From: an uncultured Gammaproteobacteria bacterium
GTDB lineage: Bacteria; Patescibacteriota; Patescibacteriia; UBA9934
Length of the DNA stretch: 64,000 nt
NCBI GenBank assembly: GCA_964344415.1
Contig: CAYFMS010000001.1
Span: 100,214 to 164,213 of the forward strand
Direction: 5' to 3'
This document shows positions 3,873-62,145 of the stretch, in pieces (position 1 is the first letter of the stretch; every line of letters starts with the position of its first letter). The translations under genes were made by a program, and so were the position numbers. The notes beneath the pieces are model-generated. The model searched no databases. It saw nothing but the letters and a program-made list of their open reading frames with translations, and was not told where the DNA came from.

Positions 3873-3889
3873 CTAAGGCACACTTCGGG

Positions 3890-6291: not shown

Positions 6292-6870
6292 ATGGCACGC
6301 ATGATGTTTTTCTTGATGGTCATCCTGACGAGTGCCTGCGCCAAGCAGGCAACCGTCCAGCCGATGATCGTGGAGGTCGTCAATCCCTGCCCAACGGGGT
6401 ATGAGCTGATGACCAGTTCGCGTGAGACGCGAAGCACCAACTATCGTTTCGGTAGTTGGTCAAGTGTCGGCGGCAATGGCCGCGAAACCGTCACGCGTCG
6501 CTGCGTGAAAGTTGCTCCTGTGGTGCAAACAGCACCTCAGCCTCCCGTCTTCGTCACCGCCGTGCCGTCCCATGTGGCGGCATATGAGGTGAACGTAGAA
6601 GAGTTGCAGCAGACGCAGTGGGCAATCATGGAAGAAGAGGTCGCCGTACAAAAACGTGCGCTTGAGATTTCCAAGAGCCGACGTGATGAGATTGCGCTGG
6701 CACTCGCGACGGCGAAGGATGACCTGGCTGCGGCAAGACGCCTTGGAGCGGACATACTTCGTAAAGCACGACGCGTCGCGTACCTCGAGGCGCTTCTGTC
6801 AGAGATGGCGGATGTCACGAATTCCTTGATCGATCAGATCGAGGCTGATCAGAATGGAGGTGTGAATTGA
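6292..6870 (+). CDS. hypothetical secreted protein or lipoprotein with a C-terminal coiled-coil
   Basis: Signal peptide MARMMFFLMVILTSAC followed by Cys. C-terminal heptad-like region EELQQTQWAIMEEEVAVQKRALEISKSRRDEIALALATAKDDLAAARR. GC-rich. Confidence 0.6.
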   Translation: MARMMFFLMVILTSACAKQATVQPMIVEVVNPCPTGYELMTSSRETRSTNYRFGSWSSVGGNGRETVTRRCVKVAPVVQTAPQPPVFVTAVPSHVAAYEVNVEELQQTQWAIMEEEVAVQKRALEISKSRRDEIALALATAKDDLAAARRLGADILRKARRVAYLEALLSEMADVTNSLIDQIEADQNGGVN

Positions 6871-7559
6871 TCACACTTTTCATCCTGATCGCGGCAGCTC
6901 TCGCGCAAACCGCTGGCTGGGGGCCTGGACATGATCCGCTCAGTCCACTCTCCGGATCGCATCTGACAGATGCGACACAGGAGTGGCCGGTCAATTCCTG
7001 CGTCATCGCAGGGATGCCGGAGGGACGCGGAAAACTCGTGTCCATCACCAACAGTTCAGGATCGACAGCGATTCTGACGGCGGTGAAACGGTACGAGACT
7101 CGCGAAGAGGTGGCTGACAATGTCTACCCACTCGCGGTCATGCGTCCCGGGCAGGCCATGGTCAGCGCCGCAATTCAGTGGGAAGAAGATGGCAGTCGCC
7201 GTCGATATCCACTGAAAAGTGGTGAAACCTGTTACATGCGCCTTCCTGCAGGGCGGTGGGTCATCGAGATGTGGGAAATCCCAAATCTCGACAGCACCCC
7301 ACCACCTGAGCGCATCATTGCCCGAGGCCATGCGTACATTCCGAATGGCCAAGGGGGATTGAAGCGCGTAGCGCAGCACCTTTCCTTCGACCGTACCCGT
7401 TACGGTAAGGAAGTGCGCTGGCATCAGGAAACGATTCACATCTCATCCCCTGTGGACGAGGTATGGATCGAGGCGCAGGTCATCCGGCAAATGACCAATC
7501 CTCGAGAGAGGATTCGCACGCCAGGGTTCACAATCGACCCACATGACTGGCGCAGCTAG
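6867..7559 (+). CDS. hypothetical secreted protein
   Basis: ATGA overlap with the upstream gene indicates translational coupling. Signal peptide MITLFILIAAALAQTAGWG. GC-rich. A terminator follows. Confidence 0.6.
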   Translation: MITLFILIAAALAQTAGWGPGHDPLSPLSGSHLTDATQEWPVNSCVIAGMPEGRGKLVSITNSSGSTAILTAVKRYETREEVADNVYPLAVMRPGQAMVSAAIQWEEDGSRRRYPLKSGETCYMRLPAGRWVIEMWEIPNLDSTPPPERIIARGHAYIPNGQGGLKRVAQHLSFDRTRYGKEVRWHQETIHISSPVDEVWIEAQVIRQMTNPRERIRTPGFTIDPHDWRS

Positions 7560-7652: not shown

Positions 7653-8024
7653 CTATGATTGCAATCCTGCTTCTGACAATGCGTCGAAGACGAAGTTTGA
7701 AATCGCAAGCGCCGCAAGAATCAAGATAATACCGACAATACCATTGATGAGAAGCTTCTTTGCCTTTTCAACCTTTCCTTCATCTCCCCCAGCCGTCATC
7801 CACATAAATCCAGCATAAAGTGTCAAAATGAGGAAGATAATTCCAAGTACGGAAATAAGCACGGAAATAAGATTCCCAATCAGTGTTGTTAAATCCTGTT
7901 CAGGAAGTCCACTTGCTGCTGAAACGTCACCAAGACGATCCGTTGCAGATGTTTGAGCATGCACTTGAACCGCCACAGCGAGGCTTAGCGGCACAGAAGA
8001 AAGAAGAGCGAGAGCTTTTTTCAT
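7653..8024 (-). CDS. TrbC/VirB2-family pilin-like protein (paralog 1)
   Basis: Signal peptide, then TM1...MWMTAGGDEGKVEKAKKLLINGIVGIILILAALAISNF (TM2). Topology and the AGxMxxxxGG motif resemble RP4 TrbC/VirB2. Confidence 0.6.
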   Translation of the reverse strand: MKKALALLSSVPLSLAVAVQVHAQTSATDRLGDVSAASGLPEQDLTTLIGNLISVLISVLGIIFLILTLYAGFMWMTAGGDEGKVEKAKKLLINGIVGIILILAALAISNFVFDALSEAGLQS

Positions 8025-8038
8025 AAAAAGAGATTAAT

Positions 8039-8440
8039 TTATTGTGTTGCCGTTTCCTCTACAGGTGCAGAAGATGTGGCGCTTTCAATGCTTTGTGTCA
8101 CGAAATTCGCAATCACAAGCGAAGCTGATACAAGTATAATTCCGATGATCGAATTGCGCAACATTGCCTTCGCTTTTTTGACACGGTCTTCATTCCCGCC
8201 CGCTGAAAAATAGAACATTCCACCTACGATGAGATAGCCAAGAAGGACAAGGCCGAGAATGGATAGTAGGACTTGAAGAAGCCTGCCAAGCACTTCTGCA
8301 AAAACAGGTACTTGGTTTTCACTGCCATATACAGCGCTCCCTGCCCGATCCGTTACCGAAGTATAGCTGGGCTGAGCATAGGCAGCACCGGCCGGCAAGA
8401 AAAGAAATGAGATCCCGATGATTGCTAGCAATTTCTTCAT
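8039..8440 (-). CDS. TrbC/VirB2-family pilin-like protein (paralog 2)
   Basis: Same architecture: ...FYFSAGGNEDRVKKAKAMLRNSIIGIILVSASLVIANF. Confidence 0.6.
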   Translation of the reverse strand: MKKLLAIIGISFLFLPAGAAYAQPSYTSVTDRAGSAVYGSENQVPVFAEVLGRLLQVLLSILGLVLLGYLIVGGMFYFSAGGNEDRVKKAKAMLRNSIIGIILVSASLVIANFVTQSIESATSSAPVEETATQ

Positions 8441-8441
8441 A

Positions 8442-8837
8442 TTATGGTGTTGGTGGAGCGGTGGAACTCACCCCAGAAAGCGCTTCTAATAGTAAATTGG
8501 TTATCGCAAAGGCGGCAACAATGATAATCATTCCGACCGTTGCATGTATGAGCAGCTTCTTCGCCTTTGCAACAGAGTCGAGATTCCCCTGATCCGTCAT
8601 CCACATCACACCTGCATAGACCATTTGAACAAGATACACAATTCCGACAAGCCCAAGAAGTGGTCGAATAATGTACACCCCAAGAAAAGTACCTACATCG
8701 ATATTGCGCTGCCCACTCCCATAGGAAAGTTCTGCTGTTTCAAAAAGCCCTATTTCATTTACATCAAGTTGAGCAAAGACAATAACAGGAATAAAAAACA
8801 AACTAAGCATTATGATGGGTAAAATCCATTTCCGCAT
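8442..8837 (-). CDS. TrbC/VirB2-family pilin-like protein (paralog 3)
   Basis: Start taken at internal ATG 8837 (MRKWILPII signal peptide). Motif VMWMTDQGNLDSVAKAKKLLIHATVGMIIIVAAFAITNL. Confidence 0.55.
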   Translation of the reverse strand: MRKWILPIIMLSLFFIPVIVFAQLDVNEIGLFETAELSYGSGQRNIDVGTFLGVYIIRPLLGLVGIVYLVQMVYAGVMWMTDQGNLDSVAKAKKLLIHATVGMIIIVAAFAITNLLLEALSGVSSTAPPTP

Positions 8838-8875
8838 ATCGAAAGGGCCCTTGGCCCAATCGGCATACGACAATG

Positions 8876-9313
8876 TTATTGCGTTGCTGTGAGAATGGAC
8901 CGAATCACGAATTCTGTAATTGCCCAAGCGGTAAGAATAATGGCAAGGCCAACAAGTCCAGCAATGAGCATGCGCTTTGCCTCGGCAACCTTGTCGTCAT
9001 TTCCGCCAGCGGTCATCCACTTGAATCCACCCATGAGTGTTACCACGACAGCGATAATTCCAAGGAATCCAATCACGACACGAATGAGATTTCCTGCCGT
9101 CGATTCAAGATCAGCAGAACCAAGTCCTGTAGCACTTGTAAAGTCATCACTCAAAAGATCATCAGCTGTGAGCGGACCTGAGTCGCTTCCAGTTGTTGTT
9201 GGGACGGGATCACCAAGCTGCGCCGACGCAGGTGATACAAAGAAACTAAATGCACTGAGTGCAATGAGAAGGCTCATTGCGCCATAGAGAGAGTAACGTA
9301 GGAAACTCGTCAT
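8876..9313 (-). CDS. TrbC/VirB2-family pilin-like protein (paralog 4)
   Basis: FKWMTAGGNDDKVAEAKRMLIAGLVGLAIILTAWAITEF. Confidence 0.6.
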   Translation of the reverse strand: MTSFLRYSLYGAMSLLIALSAFSFFVSPASAQLGDPVPTTTGSDSGPLTADDLLSDDFTSATGLGSADLESTAGNLIRVVIGFLGIIAVVVTLMGGFKWMTAGGNDDKVAEAKRMLIAGLVGLAIILTAWAITEFVIRSILTATQ

Positions 9314-9331
9314 AGAAAAAGAATTAAGAAA

Positions 9332-10012
9332 CTAATTAGCGGGACCTGCTTCTCCGCCGACAAGAGGATTACCTGTTGTGACGGCAGTGAAGAGCGTATT
9401 GGTAGCAACGAATGCTGCTGCGATAATGATTATACCAAGCATTGCAAAAATGAGTACTTTCTTTGCTTTTGAAATCTGTGCATCATTTCCGCCAGCTGTT
9501 AGAAACATGAGTCCACCGAAAATGAACATGATAAGAGCAATGGCGCCCGTGAGGCCAAGAATACCCTGAATGATGCGCCCAAGGATTTCGCGGGGGTCGG
9601 ATGTTCCAAGAGGATTCACAAGTCCAACGGGAGCTGCAGAAATCGACCCTACTGTTCCTGATCCAGACGTGGGCGCGGACTGGACAACCGGAGCCGACGT
9701 CGTTGCTCCACATGAACTTGGATCATTTATACATGCTGCTTCGCAATCATCCGCCTCAACATCGACACATCCCTGCACGAGATTGGAACAAGCAAAGTAA
9801 TCTGTCTGAGGATCTAAGCCATCACAAATCTGCCCTGCGCCATAGACACTTGCATCTCCCGCATCCCCACAAACAGCTTCAGCTTGATTTTCACAATAGC
9901 CCGTGAAGTCTTGAGCGGAAACGATTAATGGAATGAGCATGGAAATAGCCATGAATAAAAGTGATAAAAATGACCATTTTATTGTAAAAAATCTTTGCAT
10001 CATATTATTCAT
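9332..10012 (-). CDS. TrbC/VirB2-family pilin-like protein (paralog 5) with a Cys-rich N-terminal insertion
   Basis: LMFLTAGGNDAQISKAKKVLIFAMLGIIIIAAAFVATN. The insertion carries about 11 Cys (CENQAEAVCGDAG...CEAACINDPSSCG). Confidence 0.55.
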   Translation of the reverse strand: MNNMMQRFFTIKWSFLSLLFMAISMLIPLIVSAQDFTGYCENQAEAVCGDAGDASVYGAGQICDGLDPQTDYFACSNLVQGCVDVEADDCEAACINDPSSCGATTSAPVVQSAPTSGSGTVGSISAAPVGLVNPLGTSDPREILGRIIQGILGLTGAIALIMFIFGGLMFLTAGGNDAQISKAKKVLIFAMLGIIIIAAAFVATNTLFTAVTTGNPLVGGEAGPAN

Positions 10013-10574
10013 TTTGTGTATTTATTAAACTTCCCGCCGTGTCACCTCCAGTTGCGCGATCAATCGTTTCCTCGATGGTAGAATCTCCGCTTGGCAAGCT
10101 TCCTGTCGGTGATGTCAAAACACTAATGACAATATTCACAATGGCATAGGCGGACAATACAATCACAAGTCCAATGAATGCATCGCGCAGCGTATGAAGT
10201 CCTTTTTGAATTTTCGTTTGATTCCCTCCACTTGTGATCCAAGTTAGTCCACCAATGATAAAAACAAGCAAGAGAATACCTCCTGTTATTCCAAAGAGGA
10301 ATGTTTGAATGTTCACAGCAATTTGAAAGAGATCCTGAATGCTACATTTTCCCTTTTCATCACATTCCGTTGAGAGATTATAACGAATGAGTCCGCTTCT
10401 AATGAGCTGTGTAAAACGTGGTACCGTTACTGACTGTTCAATTTGATTCCCTGCGAGACCCGTTGTTGGTGGTGCTGTGACATCGGTTTGCGCATGGGCA
10501 TTTAAAGCGAAAAACAACAGCGAGCATAGTATGCTGACTAAAAAAATACGATATGTATAACGTATAAAACTCAT
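10005..10574 (-). CDS. TrbC/VirB2-family pilin-like protein (paralog 6, divergent)
   Basis: LTWITSGGNQTKIQKGLHTLRDAFIGLVIVLSAYAIVNI; signal peptide MSFIRYTYRIFLVSILCSLLFFALNAHA. Confidence 0.5.
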   Translation of the reverse strand: MSFIRYTYRIFLVSILCSLLFFALNAHAQTDVTAPPTTGLAGNQIEQSVTVPRFTQLIRSGLIRYNLSTECDEKGKCSIQDLFQIAVNIQTFLFGITGGILLLVFIIGGLTWITSGGNQTKIQKGLHTLRDAFIGLVIVLSAYAIVNIVISVLTSPTGSLPSGDSTIEETIDRATGGDTAGSLINTQNE

Positions 10575-10579
10575 CTGGA

Positions 10580-10860
10580 AATCATTATAGCGTAGATGGG
10601 TTGTCGGGAGTAGGGCATTGTTACGGATTTACGGATGGTGCGGATTATCGGTTGCACAGTTGACGACAAGTCTATTCGTGACTCATAAATAGACTTGTCG
10701 TCATCCCGAGCGAATGCGAGGGATCTCTCACAGTATCTGTTTATGTTTCATAAACCAAGATACCGTGTCATCCCGGACAGAGCGAAGCGGAGATCCGGGA
10801 TCCATCAGCAACCGTCATGCCGGATCTAGTCCGGCATCCCCTGTTTTTTTCTTCTTACTT
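10580..10860. repeat. copy of the dispersed modular repeat family (modules gatttacggatggt, cagttgacgacaagtct plus nested hairpin, and the gtcatccc...38-mer) with a terminal hairpin and T-run
   Basis: The 14-mer at 10626-10639 is identical to 16024-16037. The 38-mer at 10781-10818 is identical to 61738-61775. A 14-bp perfect IR, gacgacaagtctat/atagacttgtcgtc, lies at 10663-10703. Hairpin gccggatctagtccggc at 10819-10835. Confidence 0.65.
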
Positions 10861-10879
10861 TTCTTTAAAGAAAAGTAAG
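10854..10879. repeat. 26-bp perfect palindrome cttacttttctttaaagaaaagtaag
   Basis: The 13+13 arms are exact reverse complements. Confidence 0.8.
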
Positions 10880-10936
10880 CAAAAGAACGCCGCCAGTGCT
10901 CGCTTTGTCACATGCATAGAGCGTCATCGCTCGGGC

Positions 10937-11008
10937 AAAACAGAGAGTAGGAATGTCCTTATTTTTCTTGATACAATCATGCGTTCATTCCTATCGGCTG
11001 TTTTGCAA
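10937..11008. repeat. interrupted ~20-bp inverted repeat (gcaaaacag-agag-taggaatg ... cattccta-tcgg-ctgttttgc)
   Basis: Both arm segments are exact reverse complements, separated by a ~30-nt loop. Confidence 0.6.
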
Positions 11009-11167
11009 TTCCTCGCTCTTGCCGTATGCAGTGTGACAGTCTCACAGGTGGCGGCAGATTCGGAATAAAGGATATTAGGTAAATATTGGTCGCGCAGTGA
11101 GCATGGAAAGGTTGAACCTTGTGACCTCCCAGCTACACCCCAAACCCTACTCCCTACACCCTAATAG

Positions 11168-14539: not shown

Positions 14540-15707
14540 AAAGCTCCCCATTTTTAATTGCTTTTGTTATATCCATGCGCTTTGATACATCACCAATAAG
14601 CACCGCCCCTACCGTTTTTCCATTCCGCTCAAACAATTCCAAACTCGATGTATCTGTCAGGCTCGATTGTACCAAGTTATCCGCCTGCTTGCGATCAACA
14701 TCACCGACAAAAGCAATGTTCATTCCTAGTACATCCGTCGCATATGATGAAACAAGGCTGAATGGCGTTTGGTTACCCGTCATTGTTTTAGCAACAACCC
14801 GTGCCTGCATTTGCGCATTCATCCAATTCCCATATTTTACTTTGCGACCGACATGCGTATCGAAAAATTCCGCTATATCTCCCGCGGCATATACATGTTC
14901 AACATTTGTTTCCAAAAATTCATCCGTTAATACGCCAGAAGAGCTTTCAATTCCCGCGTCTTCAAATAGTTTATGGTCGGCATGTATACCAATTCCCACT
15001 CCTAAGATTTTTGCATCGACTTTTTTCCCATCCGGCAATTCAATTGCTTCGAGTTCATCATCGCCGATGAGTGTAAAATCAGGGATTCCTGTTAATACGT
15101 CAAAGCCATGGGATTCTATATGACGAATCAATACATCGGATGATTCTTTGCTTAAAATGCGTGACCAAAACTGATCTGACCGCATAAATACACTCGCCGC
15201 CACGCCATGCTTTTGAAACATGTTGAGATATTCGAGCGTAATAAATCCCCCGCCATAAATTGCGGCATTACGATCGCTTTCAGGTAGTGTTTTTATTCGA
15301 GCAAGAAGCTCAACCATGTGGTCAGCATCGGCAAGCGTGTAAAAATAAGCAACTCCTGGCTTGTCTTCATGAATGAGATTTACATCCCCACCCGTTGTAA
15401 TGAGCAGTCTGTCGTAAGGGATTTCACGGCCTTCACTTGTTTCGACGAATTGATTTTCTGTATCGATCTTCGTTGCGCGCACGCCTCGCATATATTCAAT
15501 TCCCTGATCCGCATACCAATGTTCTTTTTTGAGGAATACCTTCTCTCGCGGTATTTTCCCTTCAACATAATGCGGCAAAAGCACCCTTGAATAGAGTGCC
15601 TGATCTTCAACCCCGATTAATGTTACCTCGGCTTCAGATTCGATTTTTTTAATCTCTTCTGCGGCTGTTGTCCCCGCTATTCCAGCGCCAATGATCACGT
15701 AGCGCAT
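14523..15707 (-). CDS. FAD-dependent pyridine nucleotide-disulfide oxidoreductase (ferredoxin/rubredoxin reductase-like)
   Basis: MRYVIIGAGIAGTTAAEEI Rossmann motif and a second GGGFITLEY dinucleotide motif. Start at internal ATG 15707, which abuts the ferredoxin gene. Confidence 0.75.
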   Translation of the reverse strand: MRYVIIGAGIAGTTAAEEIKKIESEAEVTLIGVEDQALYSRVLLPHYVEGKIPREKVFLKKEHWYADQGIEYMRGVRATKIDTENQFVETSEGREIPYDRLLITTGGDVNLIHEDKPGVAYFYTLADADHMVELLARIKTLPESDRNAAIYGGGFITLEYLNMFQKHGVAASVFMRSDQFWSRILSKESSDVLIRHIESHGFDVLTGIPDFTLIGDDELEAIELPDGKKVDAKILGVGIGIHADHKLFEDAGIESSSGVLTDEFLETNVEHVYAAGDIAEFFDTHVGRKVKYGNWMNAQMQARVVAKTMTGNQTPFSLVSSYATDVLGMNIAFVGDVDRKQADNLVQSSLTDTSSLELFERNGKTVGAVLIGDVSKRMDITKAIKNGELYVKEA

Positions 15708-15989: not shown

Positions 15990-16236
15990 AGCAGAGATTG
16001 TGTAGAAGTTACAGATTTACGGATGGTACGGATATACGGATTTAGGTGTGAAGGAGATAAAGGAGACTTATGAGATTGAGGAGATTCGGATCGCGAAGGA
16101 TATTGGATGAACTCGGTCGCGCAGTGAGTTAGATGAGATTTGTTTGAAGTTCGAGGACCGGAGTAAGCCGTACTGAAAGGTACGGTGTTGAGGACCAGAG
16201 AACTGAGGACAAAGATCGTTAACTCACAAGCGACTT
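15990..16236. repeat. copy of the dispersed modular intergenic repeat family
   Basis: Contains gatttacggatggt (16024-16037), gcgaaggatattggatgaa (16091-16109), ggtcgcgcagtgag (16113-16126, identical to 11088-11101) and gaggaccag motifs. C-poor on the plus strand. Confidence 0.6.
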
Positions 16237-16908
16237 CTAGCCAAAATATTTTTCTTTGTAGAATCTGACTAACTCTTCTACCGCCGGCAGCACCCCCGGA
16301 TTCCCTACCCCAACTTTTGTTTTTTTCTGGACCAGCTCGAGGTTATGCGCACCCTCAAGAACAGCTTCCTCGATATCTTTGTCCGTCACTTTTGAAATTG
16401 GATCAATAATCCGACTTGCTTCAACCTCAACTTTCTCAACTTGGTCTGTTTTTCGGTAATAATCATTGATCGCACCTCGAAGCGCCTTATCGCAAAGAAC
16501 CGAACAGTGAAATTTTCGTGTCGGCAACCCACCAAGACGCTCCATAATATGCTGAGGTTTTATACTTCGGGCATCCTCAAGCGTCATTCCTCCATTCTCC
16601 GTTACCATCACCGAAGCCATGGATGTTGACGCAATCGCTGAACCACAACCAAATGTTTTCCATTTAAAATCAGTGATCTTTCCGTCCTCCACCTTTATCC
16701 AAACACGCAATTCATCACCACATGCCGGCGATCCAACCTTACCGATCGCATTAAACTCTCCCTCTTCCGGATCTCTATCTAAAAAATTCTTCGGATTAAA
16801 AAAATGTTCTTTTACCATGTCCGAATAAAACCATGATTGCTTTTTATCATGACTCACAACATCGCCTCCCATCCCTGTTTTTGCCTCTGCTTTATACCCC
16901 TTACTCAT
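16237..16908 (-). CDS. nifU: Fe-S cluster assembly scaffold protein (NifU/IscU-like with C-terminal extension)
   Basis: GSPACGDELRV...FGCGSAIASTS...FHCSVL matches the IscU three-Cys signature. Confidence 0.8.
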   Translation of the reverse strand: MSKGYKAEAKTGMGGDVVSHDKKQSWFYSDMVKEHFFNPKNFLDRDPEEGEFNAIGKVGSPACGDELRVWIKVEDGKITDFKWKTFGCGSAIASTSMASVMVTENGGMTLEDARSIKPQHIMERLGGLPTRKFHCSVLCDKALRGAINDYYRKTDQVEKVEVEASRIIDPISKVTDKDIEEAVLEGAHNLELVQKKTKVGVGNPGVLPAVEELVRFYKEKYFG

Positions 16909-25344: not shown

Positions 25345-26484
25345 TTATTGTCGTATCGGCATCACAATATACTTAAACACTTCGTCTGGCATGCCAAGAG
25401 GCGTAACAACACATGGATTCATGCCATCAATCATCTGTATTTTGATCTTTGAGCTGCTCATGGCATTAAGCCCATCGAGCAAATAACGATAATTCAAGGC
25501 TATTTCATTCTCCCCTCCCTCCATTTCCACATCGAGCGATACGACATTTTCCCCGCGAACTGAATCATTTGACCGTATCTCAATTTCATTTTCCCCTTTA
25601 GAACTCAGTCGAATATCATAAAGACCTAATTTAGAGAAAAGACTTGCTGTTTTTATGGCCTGTATGAGCTCGCTTCGATTTACATCGAAAGATGTCACAC
25701 TCTTTTCTGGAATAATTTGCCGGTAGTCAGGATATACACCCTCAATCGTCCTTGAAGTTAATTCAAAACTTCCATAGGTAAAGACAACTTGATTCTCCGA
25801 GAGACCTATCTCAATCGCCTCAGGCGCTTCTACATCGTCTTTAAAGAGCCCAAGTATGCGATGCAGTTCTGAAAGCGTTCTTTGCGGAATAATGACCTGT
25901 GCAGAATCCGTTGAACCACCGCTTATTGTCAAGACAACCTCTGAAAGCCGATAACTGTCTGTCGCTGCCATAATAACCTTGCCGCCACCTTCTCTTTCAT
26001 CATGAAAAGAAAAGAATACACCAGCGAGTTCTGGACGAGATTCATTTGTCGATGCAGCAAATAATACATTCGCAAGCCCTTTTTTGAATTCAGATACTGA
26101 CATGGAATATGTCTGCTGCCCCGAAACAGATGGAACAACCGGAAATTCCGTCGATGCAATTCCCTTGAGCTTTGTTTTGCTGTTTTTGCATGAAACCATC
26201 AATCCGTCGTCTACCAAATCAATATCAACTCGCTCACTTGGTAAGAGATTAGCAAAGTCATAGAAGAGTTTTGATGGAACGGTGTATTCCCCCTCTTGTT
26301 CAACTCTGCCTCTCATAGAACAAGAGACAGCCATTTCTAAATTGGTTGCAATAAGCTTTACATTTCCTCCCTCTGCTTTTATGAGTACATTCTCAAGAAC
26401 AGGTAAGTGGGCTTGTTTTGCTCCTAGGCGACTTGTAATGGCAAGTGCCTGCCAGAGATTGTCTTTTGTGCAAGATAGTTTCAC
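25345..26484 (-). CDS. dnaN: DNA polymerase III beta sliding clamp
   Basis: MKLSCTKDNLWQALAITSRL...; 379 aa; position immediately downstream of dnaA. Confidence 0.9.
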   Translation of the reverse strand: MKLSCTKDNLWQALAITSRLGAKQAHLPVLENVLIKAEGGNVKLIATNLEMAVSCSMRGRVEQEGEYTVPSKLFYDFANLLPSERVDIDLVDDGLMVSCKNSKTKLKGIASTEFPVVPSVSGQQTYSMSVSEFKKGLANVLFAASTNESRPELAGVFFSFHDEREGGGKVIMAATDSYRLSEVVLTISGGSTDSAQVIIPQRTLSELHRILGLFKDDVEAPEAIEIGLSENQVVFTYGSFELTSRTIEGVYPDYRQIIPEKSVTSFDVNRSELIQAIKTASLFSKLGLYDIRLSSKGENEIEIRSNDSVRGENVVSLDVEMEGGENEIALNYRYLLDGLNAMSSSKIKIQMIDGMNPCVVTPLGMPDEVFKYIVMPIRQ

Positions 26485-26554: not shown

Positions 26555-26762
26555 GTGGACAGCGTGGATAAGTGACGTTTATGCCCGTGATTCTTTACTG
26601 AAAGTGCTTGGGGATTTGTGCACAGTACATGGGAGTTCTTGTGAATGAATTGTGTACAGATTCGAGGCACTTTCACACTATGTGTTTATCCTCAGGTTTT
26701 TCACCAAGATGTTCATAGGTTTATCCACGCAGCTTATCCACTTATCCTCATATTATCCAGAA
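26555..26762. promoter_or_regulatory. DnaA-box cluster (oriC element) between dnaA and dnaN
   Basis: TTATCCACG (26721), TTATCCACT (26734), TTATCCTCA, TTATCCAGA, CGTGGATAA (26564) and TGTGGACAG (26555): at least six 7-8/9 matches to TTATCCACA. Confidence 0.75.
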
Positions 26763-28150
26763 TAGATTTTCTGCTTGATGAGTTCTAGGTCACGCTTTAG
26801 CTGTTCATCAGTGTCGAGCAGCTTCACGATTTTACTGTATGCGTGCATAGCGGTTGTATGGTCACGTCCGCCGAGTTCCTGTCCAATGGACGGATAAGAA
26901 CTATCCATTTCCTCTCTCAGAAGGTACATAACGATTTGGCGAGGGAATGCCAAGCGTTTTTCCCTACTTTTTCCAAGAATATCTTCTTGATTAATGTCGA
27001 AATATTCAGCGACGGTAAGAATAATTTGTTTCGGTGACACTGTTTTTTTCATGCTGCTTGCCTCGAAGCTCGCAATGAGCGGTTGGCAGGTGTCGATGGT
27101 GGGCTCGATATTCTTAAACTGGTGATAGGCAACAATTTTTGTAAGCGCTCCCTCGAGTTCTCGCACATTTGAAGAGATATTATCGGCAATATAGTGCAGA
27201 ATTTCCCGAGGAATGCTGACGCCGCGTTTTTGACATTTGATGTCGAGAATCGCAACGCGCGTTTCAAGGTCTGGAGCACCAATATCAACGAGCATGCCCC
27301 ATTCGAGCCTAGAAAGAAGGCGCTTCTCAAGGGCAGCAATGGCGCGAGGCTGCCTATCAGACGCAATAATGATCTGTTTATTTGCCTGATGAAGGGCATT
27401 AAAGGTATGGAAGAACTCTTCTTGTGTCCCTTCTTTACCAGTGATGAACTGAATGTCATCAATAAGGAGCAGGTCTACATTACGGTATCGATCTTTGAAT
27501 TCTTTTGCTTTTCCGCCGCGCACAGCCTGAATAAAATCATTTGTGAACTGCTCGCATGTCACATAAAGCACGCGGGCATTTGGCTTTGAACGAACGATTT
27601 CATTCCCAACTGCATGCAGAAGATGTGTTTTCCCAAGCCCAACGCCTCCGTAAATGAAAAGAGGGTTATATGTGCCACCGGGTTGCGCTGCAACAGCTTG
27701 CGCGGCTGCATGCGCGAGCTCATTCTGCTTCCCAACAATGAAGCTTTGGAAGATATAATTTGTATTAATAGCACTGCTACTTGTTGCAGGCCCCTGGTCA
27801 TTCGTAACGAATCCGTAATCTTCTGGAGTATTTTCAACAGGAGCCGCCTCTACTTTTTCTTCCTCTTTAGGGGAGAAGTCAACCGCAACAGGGTCGGCTG
27901 GTTTCGTTGCGACACGATATTCAAGTCCGCGAATAGTGTGTTCAGTAATATTTTGCAGGCTAAGAAGTATGTCGCGATGATACTTTTTTTCAAGCCATGC
28001 TTTTGTGAATTGATTTGGAACACCAACAATAATGGTGTCCGGAGAAAACTCCGCAATGAATGTATTGCGGAACCAAGTAGTGAAATGCGCTTTGCTGAGC
28101 TTCAATTCAAGCTCACCAAGCGCTGCTTGCCAGAGTTCATGTGTATTCAT
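26753..28150 (-). CDS. dnaA: chromosomal replication initiator protein
   Basis: AAA+ Walker A GGVGLGKTHLLHA and C-terminal DNA-binding motifs; start at ATG 28150 (MNTHELWQAALGELE). Confidence 0.95.
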   Translation of the reverse strand: MNTHELWQAALGELELKLSKAHFTTWFRNTFIAEFSPDTIIVGVPNQFTKAWLEKKYHRDILLSLQNITEHTIRGLEYRVATKPADPVAVDFSPKEEEKVEAAPVENTPEDYGFVTNDQGPATSSSAINTNYIFQSFIVGKQNELAHAAAQAVAAQPGGTYNPLFIYGGVGLGKTHLLHAVGNEIVRSKPNARVLYVTCEQFTNDFIQAVRGGKAKEFKDRYRNVDLLLIDDIQFITGKEGTQEEFFHTFNALHQANKQIIIASDRQPRAIAALEKRLLSRLEWGMLVDIGAPDLETRVAILDIKCQKRGVSIPREILHYIADNISSNVRELEGALTKIVAYHQFKNIEPTIDTCQPLIASFEASSMKKTVSPKQIILTVAEYFDINQEDILGKSREKRLAFPRQIVMYLLREEMDSSYPSIGQELGGRDHTTAMHAYSKIVKLLDTDEQLKRDLELIKQKIYSG

Positions 28151-28191
28151 AGATATTCCCCTCAAATTCGACTGATCATCATGTTACACTA

Positions 28192-49781: not shown

Positions 49782-50634
49782 AATTCTGATTTCTTTATCA
49801 TTGCTATTATTGCCGATACCTGTTTTGGCATTTTCCCAGTCGCCCGCGTCAGCAGATATTCATGTCTACCCAGGGCAGGAGGGTGTTGTACCGATTTATA
49901 TAACCTCTGATCAGGGAGAGATTTTGTCATTTGATCTATTTCAGGCGCATATTTCTGAGACTGACGATATAAGCTTTTCTGAACTTAATGATGAACAAAA
50001 AGACATATATCGCATTGAATACGACTCAATATCTGTCGCTGCTGATGTTGAAGAAATGCTCCAGGTTTATATTTCTGCGCCGACAAGTGGGGAGGGGGAC
50101 GATATACTTGCACTCGTTGCTAGATCGGAAAAACAAGATGGCGACATTTCGATCAATGAAGCAATCGCAACGATGATTTTCGTTAGTTATGGGAATGAGC
50201 CGAAGCGAAATGCGGTATTTACGGGTCTGAGCACTCCTAAGAATGTATATGGCGACTTACCCGTTGATATATTCGCAACCGTATCAAATACTGGAGATAT
50301 TATTGCGAGACCAATTGTAGAAATACAGATTAAAAATTTGCTTGGGAGGAATGTTGCCGTATTAAGGCCCGAGGATGTGCGTACAAGTATATCTCCTGGC
50401 ACGGAGCGCCAATACCACTTTATTTGGGATGATGACCGCGATACATTGTTTTCACCATTTGGTTATTACACGATTGATGCACAATTCGCTTCTGTCATTG
50501 GAGCGTCATTTGAATCGTACAAGAAATCCATTGTTATTGTGCCGTGGAAGGGACTCTTGATACTTTTCGCTCTTGCTGCACTTATCCTTGCTATAATGAA
50601 GGTGGTCAAGAAACGCCTTCATGCTATTTCGTAA
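49765..50634 (+). CDS. cell-surface protein with an N-terminal signal peptide and a C-terminal TM anchor (DUF916-like architecture)
   Basis: Signal peptide MSAITKILISLSLLLLPIPVLA; C-terminal LLILFALAALILAIMKVVKKR. Confidence 0.55.
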   Translation: MSAITKILISLSLLLLPIPVLAFSQSPASADIHVYPGQEGVVPIYITSDQGEILSFDLFQAHISETDDISFSELNDEQKDIYRIEYDSISVAADVEEMLQVYISAPTSGEGDDILALVARSEKQDGDISINEAIATMIFVSYGNEPKRNAVFTGLSTPKNVYGDLPVDIFATVSNTGDIIARPIVEIQIKNLLGRNVAVLRPEDVRTSISPGTERQYHFIWDDDRDTLFSPFGYYTIDAQFASVIGASFESYKKSIVIVPWKGLLILFALAALILAIMKVVKKRLHAIS

Positions 50635-53600
50635 ATATATACCCTCGTTTTTTGTTCTGCTCGGCATGCTTATCATGCCATTTTTGGCTTTTTTCTCTGT
50701 TCAGGCTGCAACGACCGCAACAGATGCCTATGATATTCCGACTACAATAAAAACAAGTGAAGCGGCCAATCATGATATTTACATCACAACTTCAGTGGCT
50801 ATTCCTGAATCAGATACGCTCACGTTGACATTTGATGCAGATTTTACTCTTACCGGTCTTACGGAAGATGATATTGATGTTCTTGATGATGCAACTGATT
50901 TAACGACAGCTGCCAATTGCGCTGCTGCAGACGAGGCCAGTGTTGGTATTGCTGGACAAGTGATTACCATTACAATTTGTGCGGGTGATGGGGGTGCAAT
51001 TGCTGCCGGAAGTGTTATGCGAATTAAAATTGGGTCAAATGCTGTTGCGTCAGGTACGGGATCGAATCAAATTACAAACCCGGCGAATGCGGGAACGTAT
51101 TATATCGACGCAGCATCGGGGACGAATGATTTGATGGCATCTATCCCTATTCCGATCATCGCGGATGATGATAGTAATGTGTCTGCCACGACGCCTGCGC
51201 CTCCATCAACGGGAACAAGCGGTCCGGGGCCGGATCCATTTGATCCAGATGACACCATCACAATCGTAAGTCCAGACGGGGACGATGTTTTTAATGATGG
51301 AGATACGGTCAATATTTCATGGAATAGCACAGGGACTATCCCCTATGTTCATTTGAAATACTCGATAGATGGAGGTGGGAATTATTCAATTATAGAAGAG
51401 CAGGTAAATAATACGGGCTCATATAGCTGGACGGCGCCTGAAGTGACAACAGATGAAGCACTCATAAAAATCGAGGGAACGGACCTTGCCACGATACTGG
51501 CAACCGACACGTCAGATTCTTTTGAAATAATTGGACCTATTGATCCTTTTGTGACCGTGATATCTCCAAACGGTAGCGAGGAATATGAAGTTGGAGAAAC
51601 TATTTCCATTCTTTGGGATAGTTCTGGAACATATGACGCTGCGCGGATTGAGATTTCCGAAAATGGAGGTAATGATTTCGATGTGATTGCAAATACGACG
51701 AGTGACGATGGATCATATACGTATAAAATTGGCATCGATGCGACAAACCAAGCGCTCATTCGCGTAACGGGACTATTTAATAATAGGGGGGTCTATGAAG
51801 AACTTGAAAGTGATACATCGGACAATGGATTCACCGTCATAGAGCCGGACCCAAGTTCGGTAACGGTGCTTTACCCAAATGGCGGTGAAGAATGGATTGC
51901 AGGGAATACACATTCGGTTTTATGGGATTCATCGGATGATATAGAAACGGTAAATATTACAGCTATTCATGAAAGTGGGGCCTTTCGTAGGCTTGCAACT
52001 GATATCCCAAATACAGGCATTTTTACCTTTACATGGCCAGAGGGACGGACAGTAGATGCAATGCGCATGAGAATTAATGGTTTTAGGTCTGACGGAGAGT
52101 CATTCGCTGACATGTCAGATGCATCATTTTCTGTTGTTGAGGCCGAAGATGCTTTACAGGAAATAAGAGTCATTTCTCCAAATGGCGGGGAATTTTATCG
52201 TCAAAATGACAATATTACCATCAGCTGGGAGGGCAGTGGATTCTTAGATGCTGTCGATATTTACTATTCCGCAGACGGAGGTCAGAGCTCAAGCCCAGTT
52301 ATTATTGGAGCAACAGGTGCAAATTTTGACTGGACGGCTCCGGCCATTATTTCTGATACGGTTTTAGTCTATATCAATGGAGTTTTCAGGGGCGAGGTTC
52401 TTAGCAATGACATCTCTGACGGATTCTTCTCTATTGCTGAACCTTTAGAGGAAGAAATTGAGGAGGATGAAGAAGAGATTGGTGAAGATGAGGAGGAGGA
52501 TGTGGAAGAGGAAGAGTTGACGGAAGAGGATGAAGAAGGGGATCAGGGTGATGATGTGAGCGAGGGTGAGATCGCCCTAAGTGTTTTTGCAGGAAATGGA
52601 CAAATTCAGCTTACCGAAAGGGGGGGAGAAGTTCTTGTTCTTTCGAATTCAAGCGTTGCACTTCAAACAAATACAGCAAATGCGAATAGCGTACGATATG
52701 TGATTGATGGGCGATCTATTGATGCCGCATCGATAACGGATAATGCATTCTCAGCGAATATTGCTATTTCGAATTCCCCAATTGCTGTTACGATTATTGC
52801 AGATTTCGACGATGAAAGTTCTGTATCAGAAACGCTTCTGCTTAACCCAGTGTCTCGGGGTCTTATTTCTACTGAAGGGAGTCCGCTCTCGGATGCTGTC
52901 ATTTTTGTCTTTGCAAATGACTCTCAATGGCCAGCTGGTGTCTATGGTCAGTCAAATCCAGTGATAACTGGTGCGGGCGGCGGAATTGGCTGGTATGTTC
53001 CAAATGGCCTGTATCGTGTCACCGCGGCGCATGACCAATATATCGATGTGGAAATAACGGTGAGAGTTTCGAATAATATACTCATTCCATCACTTAATCT
53101 TCTCTCTATCGAGGAAGAAGGTATTCTAGATCAAATAACTGAAATCCTTCCAGGTCCAATTTCCGATATCGTTGTTTCTATTGGCGGAACAATAAATGAG
53201 TTTAGAGAATCGCCAGCCGCTCAAGTAAGTGCAGATATTTCAAAGCCGATTATTGTAGCATCTGTTGCCACAAGTGCTGCCGTTCTTGTTACATCGTTCA
53301 ATTTCTTGCCATTCTTGCAATATCTTTACACATTCCCAGTGATGTTCTTCGCTCGCCGCCGGCGTGAAAATTTCGGTGTTGTGTACCATTCCATAACAAA
53401 AGTTCCTATATCTTTGGCGGTTGTACGATTGATTTCTGAGCAGGGACGACTCATAAAATCGATTGTGACGGATGAGCTTGGACGTTATTTCCTGAAAGCG
53501 AGTCCGGGTCGATATCGGATAGAAGTTCGTAAAGATGACTTAAAGTTTCCAAGTGAATATCTGAGAGGAAAAAAATCTGATGGAGGATTCCTTGATATTT

Positions 53601-54142
53601 ATACGGATGGCTTTATTGAAGTAACGGAGGCAGATATCACTATTGCGGCGAATATTCCACTTGATCCTAGTGATTTATCGGCGATGCATGCGCCTCGCCG
53701 TATTCTGTTTAAACGGTTTTTGCGCATTTTTCAGCTTGTGGCAGCGCCGGCCGGACTCCTTTTGGCTTTTTATGTCCTTATCATCCAGCCAAGTGTTTTG
53801 ACGCTTGGAGGTGTTTTGATTCAGCTCAGCATGTTTGGGGCGACGCATGTCCTGATACAGCCTAAAAAGAGGCGTGGATGGGGAATTGTACGTGAATATG
53901 GAACAAATGTACCTATTACGAATGCAATCGTTCGGCTCTTTGAGCCAAAGTTCAATAAATTGATTGAAACGCAGATAACAGATGCAAAGGGGCGCTATGC
54001 ATTTCTTGCGGGTTCAAATGAATATTATATGACGGTTGATAAAGATGGATATCGCAAAAAAGAGATTCGACCAATCGATTACACTGAAAAAACAGAACCA
54101 TCACCAATCTCCATTGATGTTGATTTAGAGAAGGGAGTATAA
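50621..54142 (+). CDS. giant (1173-aa) secreted/surface protein with beta-rich repeats, an acidic patch and a C-terminal membrane-embedded region carrying carboxypeptidase-regulatory-like repeats
   Basis: Signal peptide, then repeated ~90-aa modules (VISPNG.EY..G..I.I.W...G). EEEIEEDEEEIGEDEEEDVEEEE stretch. At least four C-terminal TM helices flank VVRLISEQGRLIKSIVTDELGRYFL and IVRLFEPKFNKLIETQITDAKGRYAF motifs. Confidence 0.6.
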   Translation: MLFRKYIPSFFVLLGMLIMPFLAFFSVQAATTATDAYDIPTTIKTSEAANHDIYITTSVAIPESDTLTLTFDADFTLTGLTEDDIDVLDDATDLTTAANCAAADEASVGIAGQVITITICAGDGGAIAAGSVMRIKIGSNAVASGTGSNQITNPANAGTYYIDAASGTNDLMASIPIPIIADDDSNVSATTPAPPSTGTSGPGPDPFDPDDTITIVSPDGDDVFNDGDTVNISWNSTGTIPYVHLKYSIDGGGNYSIIEEQVNNTGSYSWTAPEVTTDEALIKIEGTDLATILATDTSDSFEIIGPIDPFVTVISPNGSEEYEVGETISILWDSSGTYDAARIEISENGGNDFDVIANTTSDDGSYTYKIGIDATNQALIRVTGLFNNRGVYEELESDTSDNGFTVIEPDPSSVTVLYPNGGEEWIAGNTHSVLWDSSDDIETVNITAIHESGAFRRLATDIPNTGIFTFTWPEGRTVDAMRMRINGFRSDGESFADMSDASFSVVEAEDALQEIRVISPNGGEFYRQNDNITISWEGSGFLDAVDIYYSADGGQSSSPVIIGATGANFDWTAPAIISDTVLVYINGVFRGEVLSNDISDGFFSIAEPLEEEIEEDEEEIGEDEEEDVEEEELTEEDEEGDQGDDVSEGEIALSVFAGNGQIQLTERGGEVLVLSNSSVALQTNTANANSVRYVIDGRSIDAASITDNAFSANIAISNSPIAVTIIADFDDESSVSETLLLNPVSRGLISTEGSPLSDAVIFVFANDSQWPAGVYGQSNPVITGAGGGIGWYVPNGLYRVTAAHDQYIDVEITVRVSNNILIPSLNLLSIEEEGILDQITEILPGPISDIVVSIGGTINEFRESPAAQVSADISKPIIVASVATSAAVLVTSFNFLPFLQYLYTFPVMFFARRRRENFGVVYHSITKVPISLAVVRLISEQGRLIKSIVTDELGRYFLKASPGRYRIEVRKDDLKFPSEYLRGKKSDGGFLDIYTDGFIEVTEADITIAANIPLDPSDLSAMHAPRRILFKRFLRIFQLVAAPAGLLLAFYVLIIQPSVLTLGGVLIQLSMFGATHVLIQPKKRRGWGIVREYGTNVPITNAIVRLFEPKFNKLIETQITDAKGRYAFLAGSNEYYMTVDKDGYRKKEIRPIDYTEKTEPSPISIDVDLEKGV

Positions 54143-61557: not shown

Positions 61558-61860
61558 AGGACCAGTAAGTAGTTAGTAGAAAATAGTAAGTAGGTTACCG
61601 TTACAGATGTACTGATAGTACAGATATACGGATTTATGTGCGAAGGAGATTTAGGAGATTGGAGAGATTCTAGTCGCGCAGTTGACGATAAGTCTGTTTG
61701 TGAGTCACAAACCAAGATTTATCGTCATCCCAGACGAAGCGAAGCGGAGATCCGGGATCCATCAGCAACCGTCATCCCGAGCCCTGCCTGCCGGCAGGCA
61801 GGGCATCCCTTGCAAAGGATCCTTCGACAGGTTCAGAACTTTGATCAAGTTCATAAGTGA
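61558..61860. repeat. most complete copy of the dispersed modular intergenic repeat family, ending in a 22-bp perfect palindrome
   Basis: The 18-mer at 61565-61582 equals 3656-3673. atacggattta...gcgaaggag module. Nested hairpins at 61686-61728. The 38-mer at 61738-61775 equals 10781-10818. Palindrome ccctgcctgcc/ggcaggcaggg at 61782-61803. Confidence 0.7.
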
Positions 61861-61861
61861 T

Positions 61862-61891
61862 AAAAAAAACCGCCTAGCTTTCGCTAGGCGG
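61862..61891 (-). terminator. Rho-independent terminator (minus strand)
   Basis: ccgcctagc-tttc-gctaggcgg 9-bp stem; the minus-strand T8 run corresponds to 61862-61869. Confidence 0.7.
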
Positions 61892-61978
61892 GAATTCAGC
61901 CAGAAGGCTGATGGCGATGATGACGAAGGCGGCATAGCCGACCCACATCATGATGAGATCAAGAATGAATTGCATCAT
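61874..61978 (-). CDS. small hydrophobic peptide (33-34 aa, single TM), GC-rich
   Basis: MMQFILDLIMMWVGYAAFVIIAISLLAEFPPSES. ATGA overlap with the upstream small ORF. Stop codon lies within the terminator stem. Confidence 0.45.
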   Translation of the reverse strand: MMQFILDLIMMWVGYAAFVIIAISLLAEFPPSES

Positions 61979-62145
61979 TCGATTCTCTCGCTGATTTGGA
62001 TCTCCTCCTCATACTCGAGCCATGACCCGAGAATGATGCTTGCCACTCCGATGGCACCGGCGGTCGGCCAGATGAGAATCTCCCACCAGGCCATGCTTGC
62101 GATGGTCTCGGGAAGAAGCTCACAAAAGGTATAGAAGTCGATCAT
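61975..62145 (-). CDS. small membrane protein (56 aa, single TM, acidic C-terminus), GC-rich
   Basis: MIDFYTFCELLPETIASMAWWEILIWPTAGAIGVASIILGSWLEYEEEIQISERIE. GGAGG SD 5 nt upstream; consensus promoter upstream. Confidence 0.5.
   Translation of the reverse strand: MIDFYTFCELLPETIASMAWWEILIWPTAGAIGVASIILGSWLEYEEEIQISERIE

Follow-up and report, generated by a model that had tools for sequence, protein, structure and literature searches.

Intergenic mosaics of CGTC-type REP hairpins, a long hairpin and cytosine-poor micro-arrays in a Patescibacteria genome

Four intergenic regions and their composition

Here, four intergenic regions are described that lie in a 64,000-nucleotide stretch of a Patescibacteria genome (contig CAYFMS010000001.1, positions 100,214 to 164,213; the whole stretch is called the window in the following). 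The regions, A (3649–3830), B (10580–10860), C (15990–16236) and D (61558–61860), are flanked by genes for an NTPase, an unknown 688-aa protein, a type IV secretion system (T4SS) pilin, a solute-binding protein, ferredoxin, NifU, YchF, two small membrane peptides and a methyltransferase, which have no common function. The regions are built from at least three types of modules: hairpins of the CGTC-tagged repetitive extragenic palindrome (REP) class, a long hairpin termed M7, and cytosine-poor arrays of 8–9-nt units (TACGGAT, AAGGAGAT) accompanied by a TAG-rich tract. These modules recur within the genome, in relatives and in other phyla in a non-syntenic manner, and most relatives do not have them at the same junction. 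With moderate confidence we interpret the regions as intergenic mosaics resembling bacterial interspersed mosaic elements (BIMEs) or neisserial intergenic mosaic elements (NIMEs), in which the modules are arranged in differing order and REP-type repeats are hosted by a member of the candidate phyla radiation (CPR).

The YchF protein encoded next to region D has its closest homologues, at no more than 78% identity, in organisms named Patescibacteria or Candidatus Uhrbacteria, and the host is placed near the latter. The transcription context of the regions is mixed, i.e., two of them follow plus-strand genes and the other two are antisense between minus-strand genes.

Extent and distribution of the repeats

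All modules quoted in a sequence-only reading of the window were recovered as exact repeats on the plus strand of the four regions, and three of the coordinates given there had to be shifted by 2–13 nt. The 18-mer shared by A and D is located at 3657 and 61565. The 14-mer gatttacggatggt starts in region C at 16014 (not 16024), the 19-mer gcgaaggatattggatgaa is found at 3712 and 16093 (not 3725 and 16091), and the 14-mer ggtcgcgcagtgag, for which the copy in C lies at 16115 (not 16113), is not significant if taken alone (E about 0.1). The motif cagttgacga(c/t)aagtct was confirmed at 10657 and 61679, each time with a strong hairpin next to it (single-stranded DNA (ssDNA) fold z = −7.4 and −6.9), as was the identical core of 38 nt at 10781 and 61738.

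Gapless extension and BLAST showed that these cores are much shorter than the true repeats. Between regions B and D the repeat extends over 87 nt with 85% identity, 52 nt of it at 94% (E = 4e-17), and between C and D over 70 nt with 83% identity, 51 nt of it at 88% (E = 1e-9). The further pairs are shorter, i.e., 24 nt at 96% for A and D, 20 nt at 100% for A and C, and 26 nt at 92% for B and C. In the part of this genome that was searched, 71.5 kb comprising the window and the adjoining locus L001, only matches of 12–17 nt with E ≥ 0.07 occur outside the four gaps. The sequence of the four regions is also present in an independent metagenome assembly of the European Nucleotide Archive (ENA). 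In two Logan assemblies of this organism the sequence breaks off at 61592, within the first module of D, an effect that is expected from multi-copy sequence or a variable site. The modules were thus found beyond the window, beyond the genome and in independent assemblies, which argues that they are neither confined to this stretch nor artefactual. A literature search for the exact module sequences gave no match.

The idea of a single element family, of which region D would be the most complete copy holding every module, was not borne out. At least three module types that are unrelated to each other make up the mosaics, and D contains neither the 19-mer gcgaaggatattggatgaa nor the long GTAC-tipped hairpin and has merely degenerate forms of the TACGGAT array and of ggtcgcgcagtgag. 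Similarly, the depletion of cytosine that had been ascribed to all copies holds for the 5′ modules (A 16.5%; B, first 76 nt, 11.8%; C 12.6%; D, first 118 nt, 9.3%), which are among the four stretches of lowest cytosine content in the window, but not for the hairpin halves of B and D with 26–27% compared to a window mean of 22%. The lowest value of the window (2.5%) is found at 52451–52547, a purine-rich coding repeat (GAAGAGATTGAGGAAGATGAA, three copies, nested periods of 6 and 12 nt) in the gene of a 1173-aa protein (50621–54142).

CGTC-tagged REP hairpins

CGTC-tagged REPs comprise the families CGTC-1 to CGTC-4 (Di Nocera, De Gregorio & Rocco 2013, BMC Genomics 14:522; PMC3733652). They are defined by a CGTC tag (variants TGTC and CCTC), an 8–9-bp stem starting with AT and a CCA tail, and the loop typically has 4–5 nt, with other lengths in some families (PMC3733652). 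The class is mostly alpha-proteobacterial, numbers tens to thousands of copies in a genome, lies mainly between convergent or co-directional ORFs (open reading frames), and a dedicated transposase is not known (PMC3733652). The hairpin halves of regions B and D consist of the following features:

10657–10706, plus strand: cagttgacgacaagtct module of B, an inverted repeat forming a hairpin with a perfect 16-bp stem
10699–10727, plus strand: degenerate CGTC-type unit of B, composed of CGTC, ATCCC, GAGCGAATGCGA, GGGAT and CTC
10736–10822, plus strand: 87-nt composite unit of B, 85% identical over 87 nt to D (repeat family D1)
10766–10804, plus strand: TGTC REP unit, composed of TGTC, ATCCCGGA, a 16-nt loop with GCGAAGC, TCCGGGAT and CCA
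10813–10850, plus strand: canonical CGTC REP of B, composed of CGTC, ATGCCGGA, TCTAG, TCCGGCAT and CCC, then a T-run
61679–61730, plus strand: cagttgacgataagtct module of D, a nested hairpin with the outer stem GACGATAA…TTATCGTC and the inner hairpin GTTTGTGA-GTC-ACAAAC
61723–61761, plus strand: core REP unit of D, composed of CGTC, ATCCCAGA, a 16-nt loop, TCCGGGAT and CCA, covering most of the 38-nt core
61770–61809, plus strand: second CGTC-tagged unit of D, composed of CGTCATCCCGAG, the 24-nt palindrome GCCCTGCCTGCC/GGCAGGCAGGGC and ATCCC, in head-to-tail orientation

Tag, stem and tail of these modules fit the CGTC superfamily, so that of the two proposals in the sequence-only reading, REP-like or related to miniature inverted-repeat transposable elements (MITEs), the former stands for the hairpin modules and the latter is weak. 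The tag is unpaired in all units (TGTC at 10766; CGTC at 10813, 61723, 10699 and 61770), and for the units at 10699 in B and 61723 in D it doubles as the end of the upstream hairpin arm, e.g., the cagttgacgacaagtct module has a 3′ arm whose end is the CGTC tag belonging to the unit at 10699. The stems are formed by ATCCCGGA/TCCGGGAT at 10770, by ATGCCGGA/TCCGGCAT at 10817 and, with one A·C mismatch, by ATCCCAGA/TCCGGGAT at 61727. The loop is TCTAG in the unit at 10813 and has 16 nt with a GCGAAGC mini-stem in both units of the 38-nt core, and the 3′ tails are CCA (10766), CCC (10813) and CCA (61723). In total, the 71.5 kb contain three clear and two degenerate units (10699, 61770). These are restricted to the 3′ side of B, between co-directional genes, and of D, between convergent genes, and A and C have none of them.

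Several of these modules fold strongly as ssDNA: the cagttgacgacaagtct module with −15.8 kcal/mol (z = −7.35), the cagttgacgataagtct module with −14.5 kcal/mol (z = −6.9), the unit at 61770, the inverted repeat of which is 100% complementary, with −13 kcal/mol (z = −3.8), and the unit at 10813 with −8.9 kcal/mol (z = −5.0). The degenerate unit at 10699, of which the first 13 nt recur at 61770, folds weakly (−4.5 kcal/mol, z = −0.9). The core unit at 61723 folds poorly (z = +0.35) because of the A·C mismatch in its stem; read on the minus strand, this position is a G·T wobble. Compensatory change maintains the hairpins; in the inner stem of the cagttgacgataagtct module one such change, from G-C to A-T, is read from the alignment with copy B.

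The 87-nt unit is itself composite, with a hairpin GTTTATG-TTT-CATAAAC followed by CAAGAT, the REP unit 10766–10804 and the spacer TCAGCAAC, and the 38-nt core of B (10781–10818) is part of it. The same spacer TCAGCAAC separates the units at 10766 and 10813 as well as those at 61723 and 61770, and both pairs are arranged head-to-tail and not as head-to-head dimers. Head-to-head doublets around a central hairpin are found in Bosea and in a locus of Candidatus Buchananbacteria (L069).

An exact genome scan with the 22-mer GCGAAGCGGAGATCCGGGATCC from the 38-nt core retrieved at least 120 loci. Most of those listed belong to Bosea, Kaistia, Roseibium, Beijerinckiaceae and other Rhizobiales, with many copies per genome, and one locus among the matches listed is from a metagenome-assembled genome (MAG) of Candidatus Buchananbacteria; the genome described here is not among the matches listed. 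The 22-mer is also present on three GC-rich viral contigs. In the search for plasmid and annotated homologues only the REP core gave matches, in Bosea and Pannonibacter, and region C gave none. Moreover, a related REP with the same tag and the same loop GCGAAGCG but a different stem (ATTGC) is high-copy on replicons of Novosphingobium, Methylobacterium, Methylosinus and Aulosira. Since the loop GCGAAGCG is shared and the stems differ, the loop is the conserved feature and the stems are variable. The relative L135 (72% YchF identity) has a REP mosaic of its own after ychF, with two related units each followed by CCATCGATTCT. Two REP surveys, including the one that covers five phyla (PMC3733652), do not name Patescibacteria as REP hosts.

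Purine-rich arrays and TAG-rich tracts

The 5′ parts of the regions, and the right end of B, contain short arrays, which were called by Tandem Repeats Finder, and tracts rich in TAG:

3656–3679, plus strand: TAG/GTAG-rich tract of A (AGTAAGTAGTTAGTAGAAAGTAGT), 96% identical over 24 nt to 61564–61587
3675–3690, plus strand: small GTAG-tagged hairpin of A with 5 bp, after the TAG/GTAG tract
10590–10615, plus strand: GTAG/GGG-rich tract of B, preceding the TACGGAT array
10620–10645, plus strand: TACGGAT array of B (GTTACGGATTTACGGATGGTGCGGAT), period 8 (at 10621–10636), 92% identical over 26 nt to 16008–16033
11088–11163, no strand assigned: right end of B with ggtcgcgcagtgag (11088–11101) and a 7-nt CTACACC array (11133–11163)
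16008–16041, plus strand: TACGGAT array of C, 3.9 copies, period 8 (at 16010–16041), 88% identical over 51 nt to 61600–61650
16051–16111, plus strand: AAGGAGATT array of C, four copies, period 9 (16051–16086), then the 19-mer gcgaaggatattggatgaa
61564–61595, plus strand: TAG/GTAG-rich tract of D, 7 nt after the ychF stop codon
61600–61670, plus strand: degenerate TACGGAT array of D (TACAGAT/TACTGAT), then a GGAGAT array, 83% identical over 70 nt to 16008–16077 (family D2)

Tract A begins 8 nt downstream of the NTPase stop codon and has stops in all three frames. The array of D has a period of 9, with its degenerate TACGGAT part at 61602–61626, and the periods are overall 7–9 nt with at most 4.4 copies. 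At the right end of B, the CTACACC array is the reverse complement of a GTAG-rich tract, and 11145–11161 forms a 17-nt inverted repeat of 88% with 10599–10615, a weak match with a chance estimate of roughly 0.01–0.05.

The TACGGAT array recurs in three loci (L125, L126 and L127) of another metagenomic organism with a GC content of 55–58%, at 91–94% identity over 34 nt, and in one of these loci the motif GGAGAGATTCTA again follows the array. No other DNA similarity was found between that organism and the window. In L125 the array fills an intergenic gap of 64 nt, and at one locus of that organism it lies 9 nt upstream of rpoC. In L127 (6108–6330) it forms an inverted pair of 33 bp, after which a 28-bp sequence (TCCGTAACGACGCCCCCATCCCATCCCC) is repeated three times in tandem; a gene of a T4SS-like cluster lies just downstream.

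Viral contigs scanned with the cytosine-poor modules gave no match, and a phage origin of these modules was rejected on this ground. A function of the AAGGAG arrays as Shine-Dalgarno sponge or anti-Shine-Dalgarno sequence was dropped, because most genes here do not have a Shine-Dalgarno sequence and look leaderless. Many of the genes in the window carry a TATAAT box 7–12 nt before the ATG (e.g., those at 10574, 13413, 19813, 19863, 22350 and 40161), and this position suggests that the mRNAs are largely leaderless.

The long hairpin M7

M7 is an imperfect hairpin of about 125 nt. Two copies are present in the window:

16111–16238, plus strand: best copy, in C, an imperfect hairpin of about 125 nt (RNA fold of the region z = −5.1)
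3704–3834, plus strand: full-length, diverged copy in A (covariance model 55 bits, E about 1e-11)

The copy in C has the base CGCGCAG…CAAGCG, GAGGACC on both sides of the tip and the tip GCCGTAC-TGAAAG-GTACGGT. In the copy in A the tip is GTGTAC-TGGAAC-GTACAT, the 5′ arm includes the 19-mer gcgaaggatattggatgaa, and the pairing is kept. A further copy was found in the relative L133 (11426–11541), which has 75% YchF identity and proteins that are 42–83% identical (most of them 56–83%). It matches copy C at 81% over 116 nt and at 90.6% over the central 64 nt, and no other stretch, including every coding match (mean 72.7%), is as similar at the nucleotide level between these genomes. The copy in L133 lies in the S18-epmA gap and is followed by a bidirectional terminator. 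This position is non-syntenic to copy C, and at its own S18-epmA gap the genome analyzed here has only a diverged version of M7. In that gap (L001 about 14590–14620, minus strand, about 1 kb past the window) a sequence that looks like the 3′ terminus of a tRNA or tmRNA, GCGGGTTCAAGTCCCGTCAGGTCCACCA, was seen as well. ARAGORN called no gene at this place, and the sequence could be a piece of a tRNA or an earlier attachment site.

A covariance model was built from copy C and the L133 copy, and copy A was then found with it, as was a marginal extra copy in L133. The search of L124, L135, L136, L137 and L138 gave nothing, and M7 as a conserved syntenic element was rejected given its absence from L135, L136 and L138. 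Across the three copies 95% of the cells are paired, compared to 33–40% if the partners are slid, and 12 of the 36 pairs change on both sides, a value reached by none of 500 shuffles; this covariation is that of three sequences, aligned to the model's own structure. With the structure of copy C as the only reference, five pairs are broken by the 27 substitutions in L133, compared to an expected 12.7 (P = 0.001). About 12 cells, one invariant pair among them, are G·U, which holds for the purine-rich strand only, and this strand of copy C folds better than the other (−54.5 vs. −36.8 kcal/mol).

Transcription, terminators and neighboring genes

The statement that the copies end near terminators applies to region B, which has the only plus-strand hairpin with a T-run (10813–10850). 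In D a terminator is indeed present but belongs to the convergent minus-strand genes, namely the small-peptide genes at 61874–62145:

61870–61891, minus strand: intrinsic terminator of the small-peptide genes, outside the repeat

In A a hairpin with a T-run at about 3841–3874 on the minus strand, seen by eye, resembles the terminator of the convergent gene, and the terminator scan reported only a weak minus-strand site (3829–3810). The scan of C gave none. A promoter-plus-terminator unit was not found at the regions. Of the Rfam families, only tRNAs (four in the window) reached the gathering threshold, 15 loci with REPs had no match, and relaxing the E-value for regions B, C and D brought up only sub-threshold noise. 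A structured RNA or 3′-untranslated region (UTR) element, as had been proposed, might apply to M7 with its covariation, but the regions share no transcription context, promoter-plus-terminator unit or Rfam family.

The convergent ychF/methyltransferase junction, at which D is located, is a variable hot spot among relatives with an overlap of the genes, a terminator only, different small inserted genes or a REP mosaic. The two genes overlap in P0010, L124 and L136 have only a terminator after ychF, L133 has a 515-bp gap without modules, and L137, L138 and P0005 have other genes in between. Within the D mosaic the ENA annotation places a 74-aa ORF (61636–61860), which has no relative among 5.8 billion proteins and is almost certainly spurious. 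In a part of region B that no module accounts for, there is a hairpin at 10935–11006 (21-nt arms with 81% complementarity, 30-nt loop, no Rfam match), which is overlapped by an 83-aa ORF (10817–11068) without Pfam hits.

Regions A and B do flank a GC island and a pilin array, as noted before, but they share no module, so that the island is not enclosed by a pair of repeats. The island has 53% GC, and strong GGAGG sites are found only before its three genes (3890–5956, 6292–6870 and 6867–7559), so that it looks horizontally acquired. The array consists of six small minus-strand genes (7653–10574), of which the first (10005–10574) matches T4SS pilin/TrbC-VirB2; these are thus not type IV pilins.

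The window also holds dnaN (25345–26484) and dnaA (26753–28165), both on the minus strand. Together with the cumulative GC-skew minimum at about 28–40 kb these genes place the replication origin at about 28 kb. Perfect DnaA-box 15-mers (TGTGGATAACCTGTG) are located at 28241 and 48767 and a copy with one mismatch at 35030. A replication-linked orientation of the modules was rejected, since A–C and D lie on opposite replichores yet on one strand.

Interpretation

The order of the modules varies, they share no gene or transcription context, and they recur non-syntenically. The regions therefore behave like REP-, BIME- or NIME-type repeats. The modules would be non-autonomous and may be spread by copying and reshuffling between gene ends, either by recombination or by a trans-acting enzyme that recognizes the single-stranded hairpin together with the tag. 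The short arrays might grow via replication slippage. The modules would persist at positions where they are harmless, namely downstream of stop codons and 5′ of the promoters that immediately precede the ATG in this genome. Neither ychF nor the NTPase gene has its own plus-strand terminator, and where the hairpin cluster is co-transcribed behind them it probably acts as a 3′-end barrier or as a substitute for a terminator, a role that would be passive or mildly useful.

Several observations weigh against this interpretation. Target-site duplications were not seen, also not by eye at the borders of M7, and terminal inverted repeats are limited to the one weak 17-nt case in B, with none in A, C and D. 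The 20 window proteins scanned include no transposase, and a mobilizing enzyme was not identified. The density of REP units is low for the 71.5 kb taken from a contig of 768 kb, the pairs are head-to-tail in a class that is mainly head-to-head, two units have a loop of 16 nt instead of 4–5 nt, and the core hairpin of D is unfolded on the plus strand. All four copies lie on the same strand, which is unexplained and, with n = 4, not significant. Moreover, the covariation of M7 and its G·U pairs on the purine-rich strand would fit a functional RNA equally well.

M7, possibly with the adjacent arrays, might be a cis- or trans-acting RNA of the CPR clade transcribed from the purine-rich strand, with the REPs as mere neighbors, a serious rival reading that we nevertheless regard as rather unlikely. 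The pairs that covary beyond all shuffles, the few broken pairs, the G·U cells and far better fold on the purine-rich strand, the top nucleotide identity between two genomes with diverged proteins, and the terminator after the L133 copy speak for an RNA. However, the element is non-syntenic, the L133 copy having its best match in a different gap of the window, and it is missing from L135, L136, L137 and L138. Its orientation to the neighboring genes also varies: a plus-strand gene precedes copy A, the copies in C and L133 are antisense between genes, and the weak extra copy of L133 is sense. No promoter-plus-terminator unit and, even below threshold, no Rfam match accompany it, the covariation comes from three sequences aligned to the structure of the model, and the arms of a mobile hairpin DNA covary, too.

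In the same vein, and similarly doubtful, M7 with the arrays might constitute an undescribed RNA of Uhrbacteria-like CPR, or the REP core shared with Bosea might go back to DNA that passed recently between an alpha-proteobacterium and an episymbiont of the CPR. An identity across phyla over the 16-nt loop is hard to obtain by convergence and counts for such DNA traffic.

The TACGGAT/GGAGAT arrays could alternatively be putative operator, centromere-like or upstream-activator sites just upstream of the promoters of the pilin (10574) and ferredoxin (15975) genes, which we consider improbable. They are regular, with a period of 8–9 and 3–4 copies, and in B and C they lie 30–45 nt upstream of the ATG, in B with a TATAAT 9 nt before the start. 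The direct and inverted sets in the other organism are often seen in operator arrays, and the 34 nt are conserved at 91–94% across genomes that are 10 GC points apart. On the other hand, the array of D is degenerate and is located between convergent genes behind a stop codon, where there is no gene that it could regulate, A has no array, and the neighboring genes have no common function. A candidate binding protein is not linked to the arrays, and the 64-nt gap of L125 leaves no room for a separate promoter.

NIME-type recombination hot spots, at which surface-protein or foreign genes such as the GC island and the T4SS pilins between A and B are swapped with external DNA, are highly improbable in our view. 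A and B bracket both the island, with the only window genes that have strong GGAGG sites, and the pilin array, and the ychF junction of D is variable among relatives. In Neisseria, mosaics with dRS3 (CGTC-1) adjoin pilin cassettes and serve as phage integration sites (PMC1797815; PMC3733652). Against this, A and B have no module in common, the modules are not flanked by REPs as they are with dRS3, C lies between the housekeeping genes for NifU and ferredoxin, a recombinase gene is not found nearby, and there are four loci only.

Finally, an assembly or chimera artefact, e.g., by Rhizobiales reads in a CPR contig, is scarcely credible: the 22-mer is exact in Bosea REPs and the source is a metagenome assembly, but the core is present twice, 51 kb apart, within an AT-richer 87-nt unit that only the two copies in the window have in common, and the Bosea copies do not contain the spacer ATCAGCAACCGTCAT. 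The ENA assembly shows the same sequence for the locus, as do two Logan assemblies as far as the repeat, and the Buchananbacteria MAG and L135 carry related units.

As a summary, the interpretation as BIME/NIME-like mosaics is preferred here. CPR genomes are tiny and tightly packed, so that repeated non-coding DNA in them deserves attention. The presence of CGTC-type REPs in Patescibacteria widens the host range of this repeat class. The REP core including the 16-nt loop is common to high-copy REPs of Rhizobiales, which points to horizontal spread or to a conserved recognition machinery. If the core shared with Bosea were due to recent DNA traffic, it would hint at the host of the episymbiont. 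M7 with its conserved structure is a candidate for a CPR-specific RNA or a mobile hairpin. For genome annotation it follows that ORFs called within these mosaics, such as 61636–61860, are spurious.

Comparison with known systems

Several known systems resemble single features of the regions. TIGR arrays are built from tandem units with a period of 36 nt beside a Tas (Nop-domain) gene. Such an array was rejected given the periods of 7–9 nt, the at most 4.4 copies and the housekeeping neighbors. Protein-sponge RNAs of the CsrB/RsmZ type have their own promoter and terminator and many GGA motifs in hairpin loops, with CsrA encoded in the genome. Such a sponge was rejected, too: GGA-rich arrays are present, but there is no consistent promoter or terminator, and the orientation to the neighboring genes varies. 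Attachment (att) sites flanking the island were discarded, as A and B have no common module. The STRR heptamers of cyanobacteria are short (7–9 nt) tandem units confined to intergenic regions; here, unlike in these, the sequences and hosts are others, each array has 3–4 copies, and the arrays are joined to hairpins.

M7 resembles MITEs and long-hairpin repeats such as the Correia elements and RPEs in being an imperfect palindrome of about 125 nt present in several copies at different sites across genomes. It differs from them in that neither a target-site duplication nor a recognizable parent insertion sequence is found. Moreover, both arms of M7 are purine-rich on one strand, so that many pairs are G·U or G·T and the arms are not true inverted repeats.

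The BIME and REPIN-RAYT systems of E. coli likewise consist of short extragenic palindromes and motifs that form mosaics at gene ends and likely act as hairpins at RNA 3′ ends. In contrast to the CGTC tags and direct doublets described here, these palindromes are GTAG-tagged inverted doublets that are accompanied by a single-copy RAYT, a Y1 transposase that was not detected among the 20 window proteins scanned.

With the CGTC REPs the modules share the unpaired tag, the 8-bp stem with A-T followed by T-A, the 3-nt CCA/CCC tail, the location near 3′ ends between convergent or co-directional ORFs, the lack of a linked transposase and an exact 22-mer in alpha-proteobacteria. They are unlike them in their Patescibacteria host, the head-to-tail pairs, the 16-nt GCGAAGC loop in two units, the very low density (about five in 71.5 kb) and the embedding among other modules. 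The REP part belongs to a known class, from which it is set apart as a variant by the head-to-tail layout, the 16-nt loop and the association with M7 and the micro-arrays.

The nearest published parallel are the NIMEs of Neisseria, where CGTC-1 hairpins (dRS3) alternate with numerous families of short repeats near pilin and other variable loci (PMC1797815; PMC3733652). NIME arrays are far larger and more numerous, each repeat sequence (RS) is bracketed by dRS3, whereas here the REPs cluster at one end of the mosaic, and no counterpart of the dRS3-specific phage recombinase is known here. Both systems have CGTC-type hairpins interleaved with modules of 20–200 bp in varying order, an alternation of GC-rich hairpins with AT-richer modules and a location near pilin genes and variable loci. 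The mosaic is an ordinary kind of bacterial repeat that will not surprise specialists for repeats, and it is the REP core shared with soil alpha-proteobacteria that is unusual for this host.

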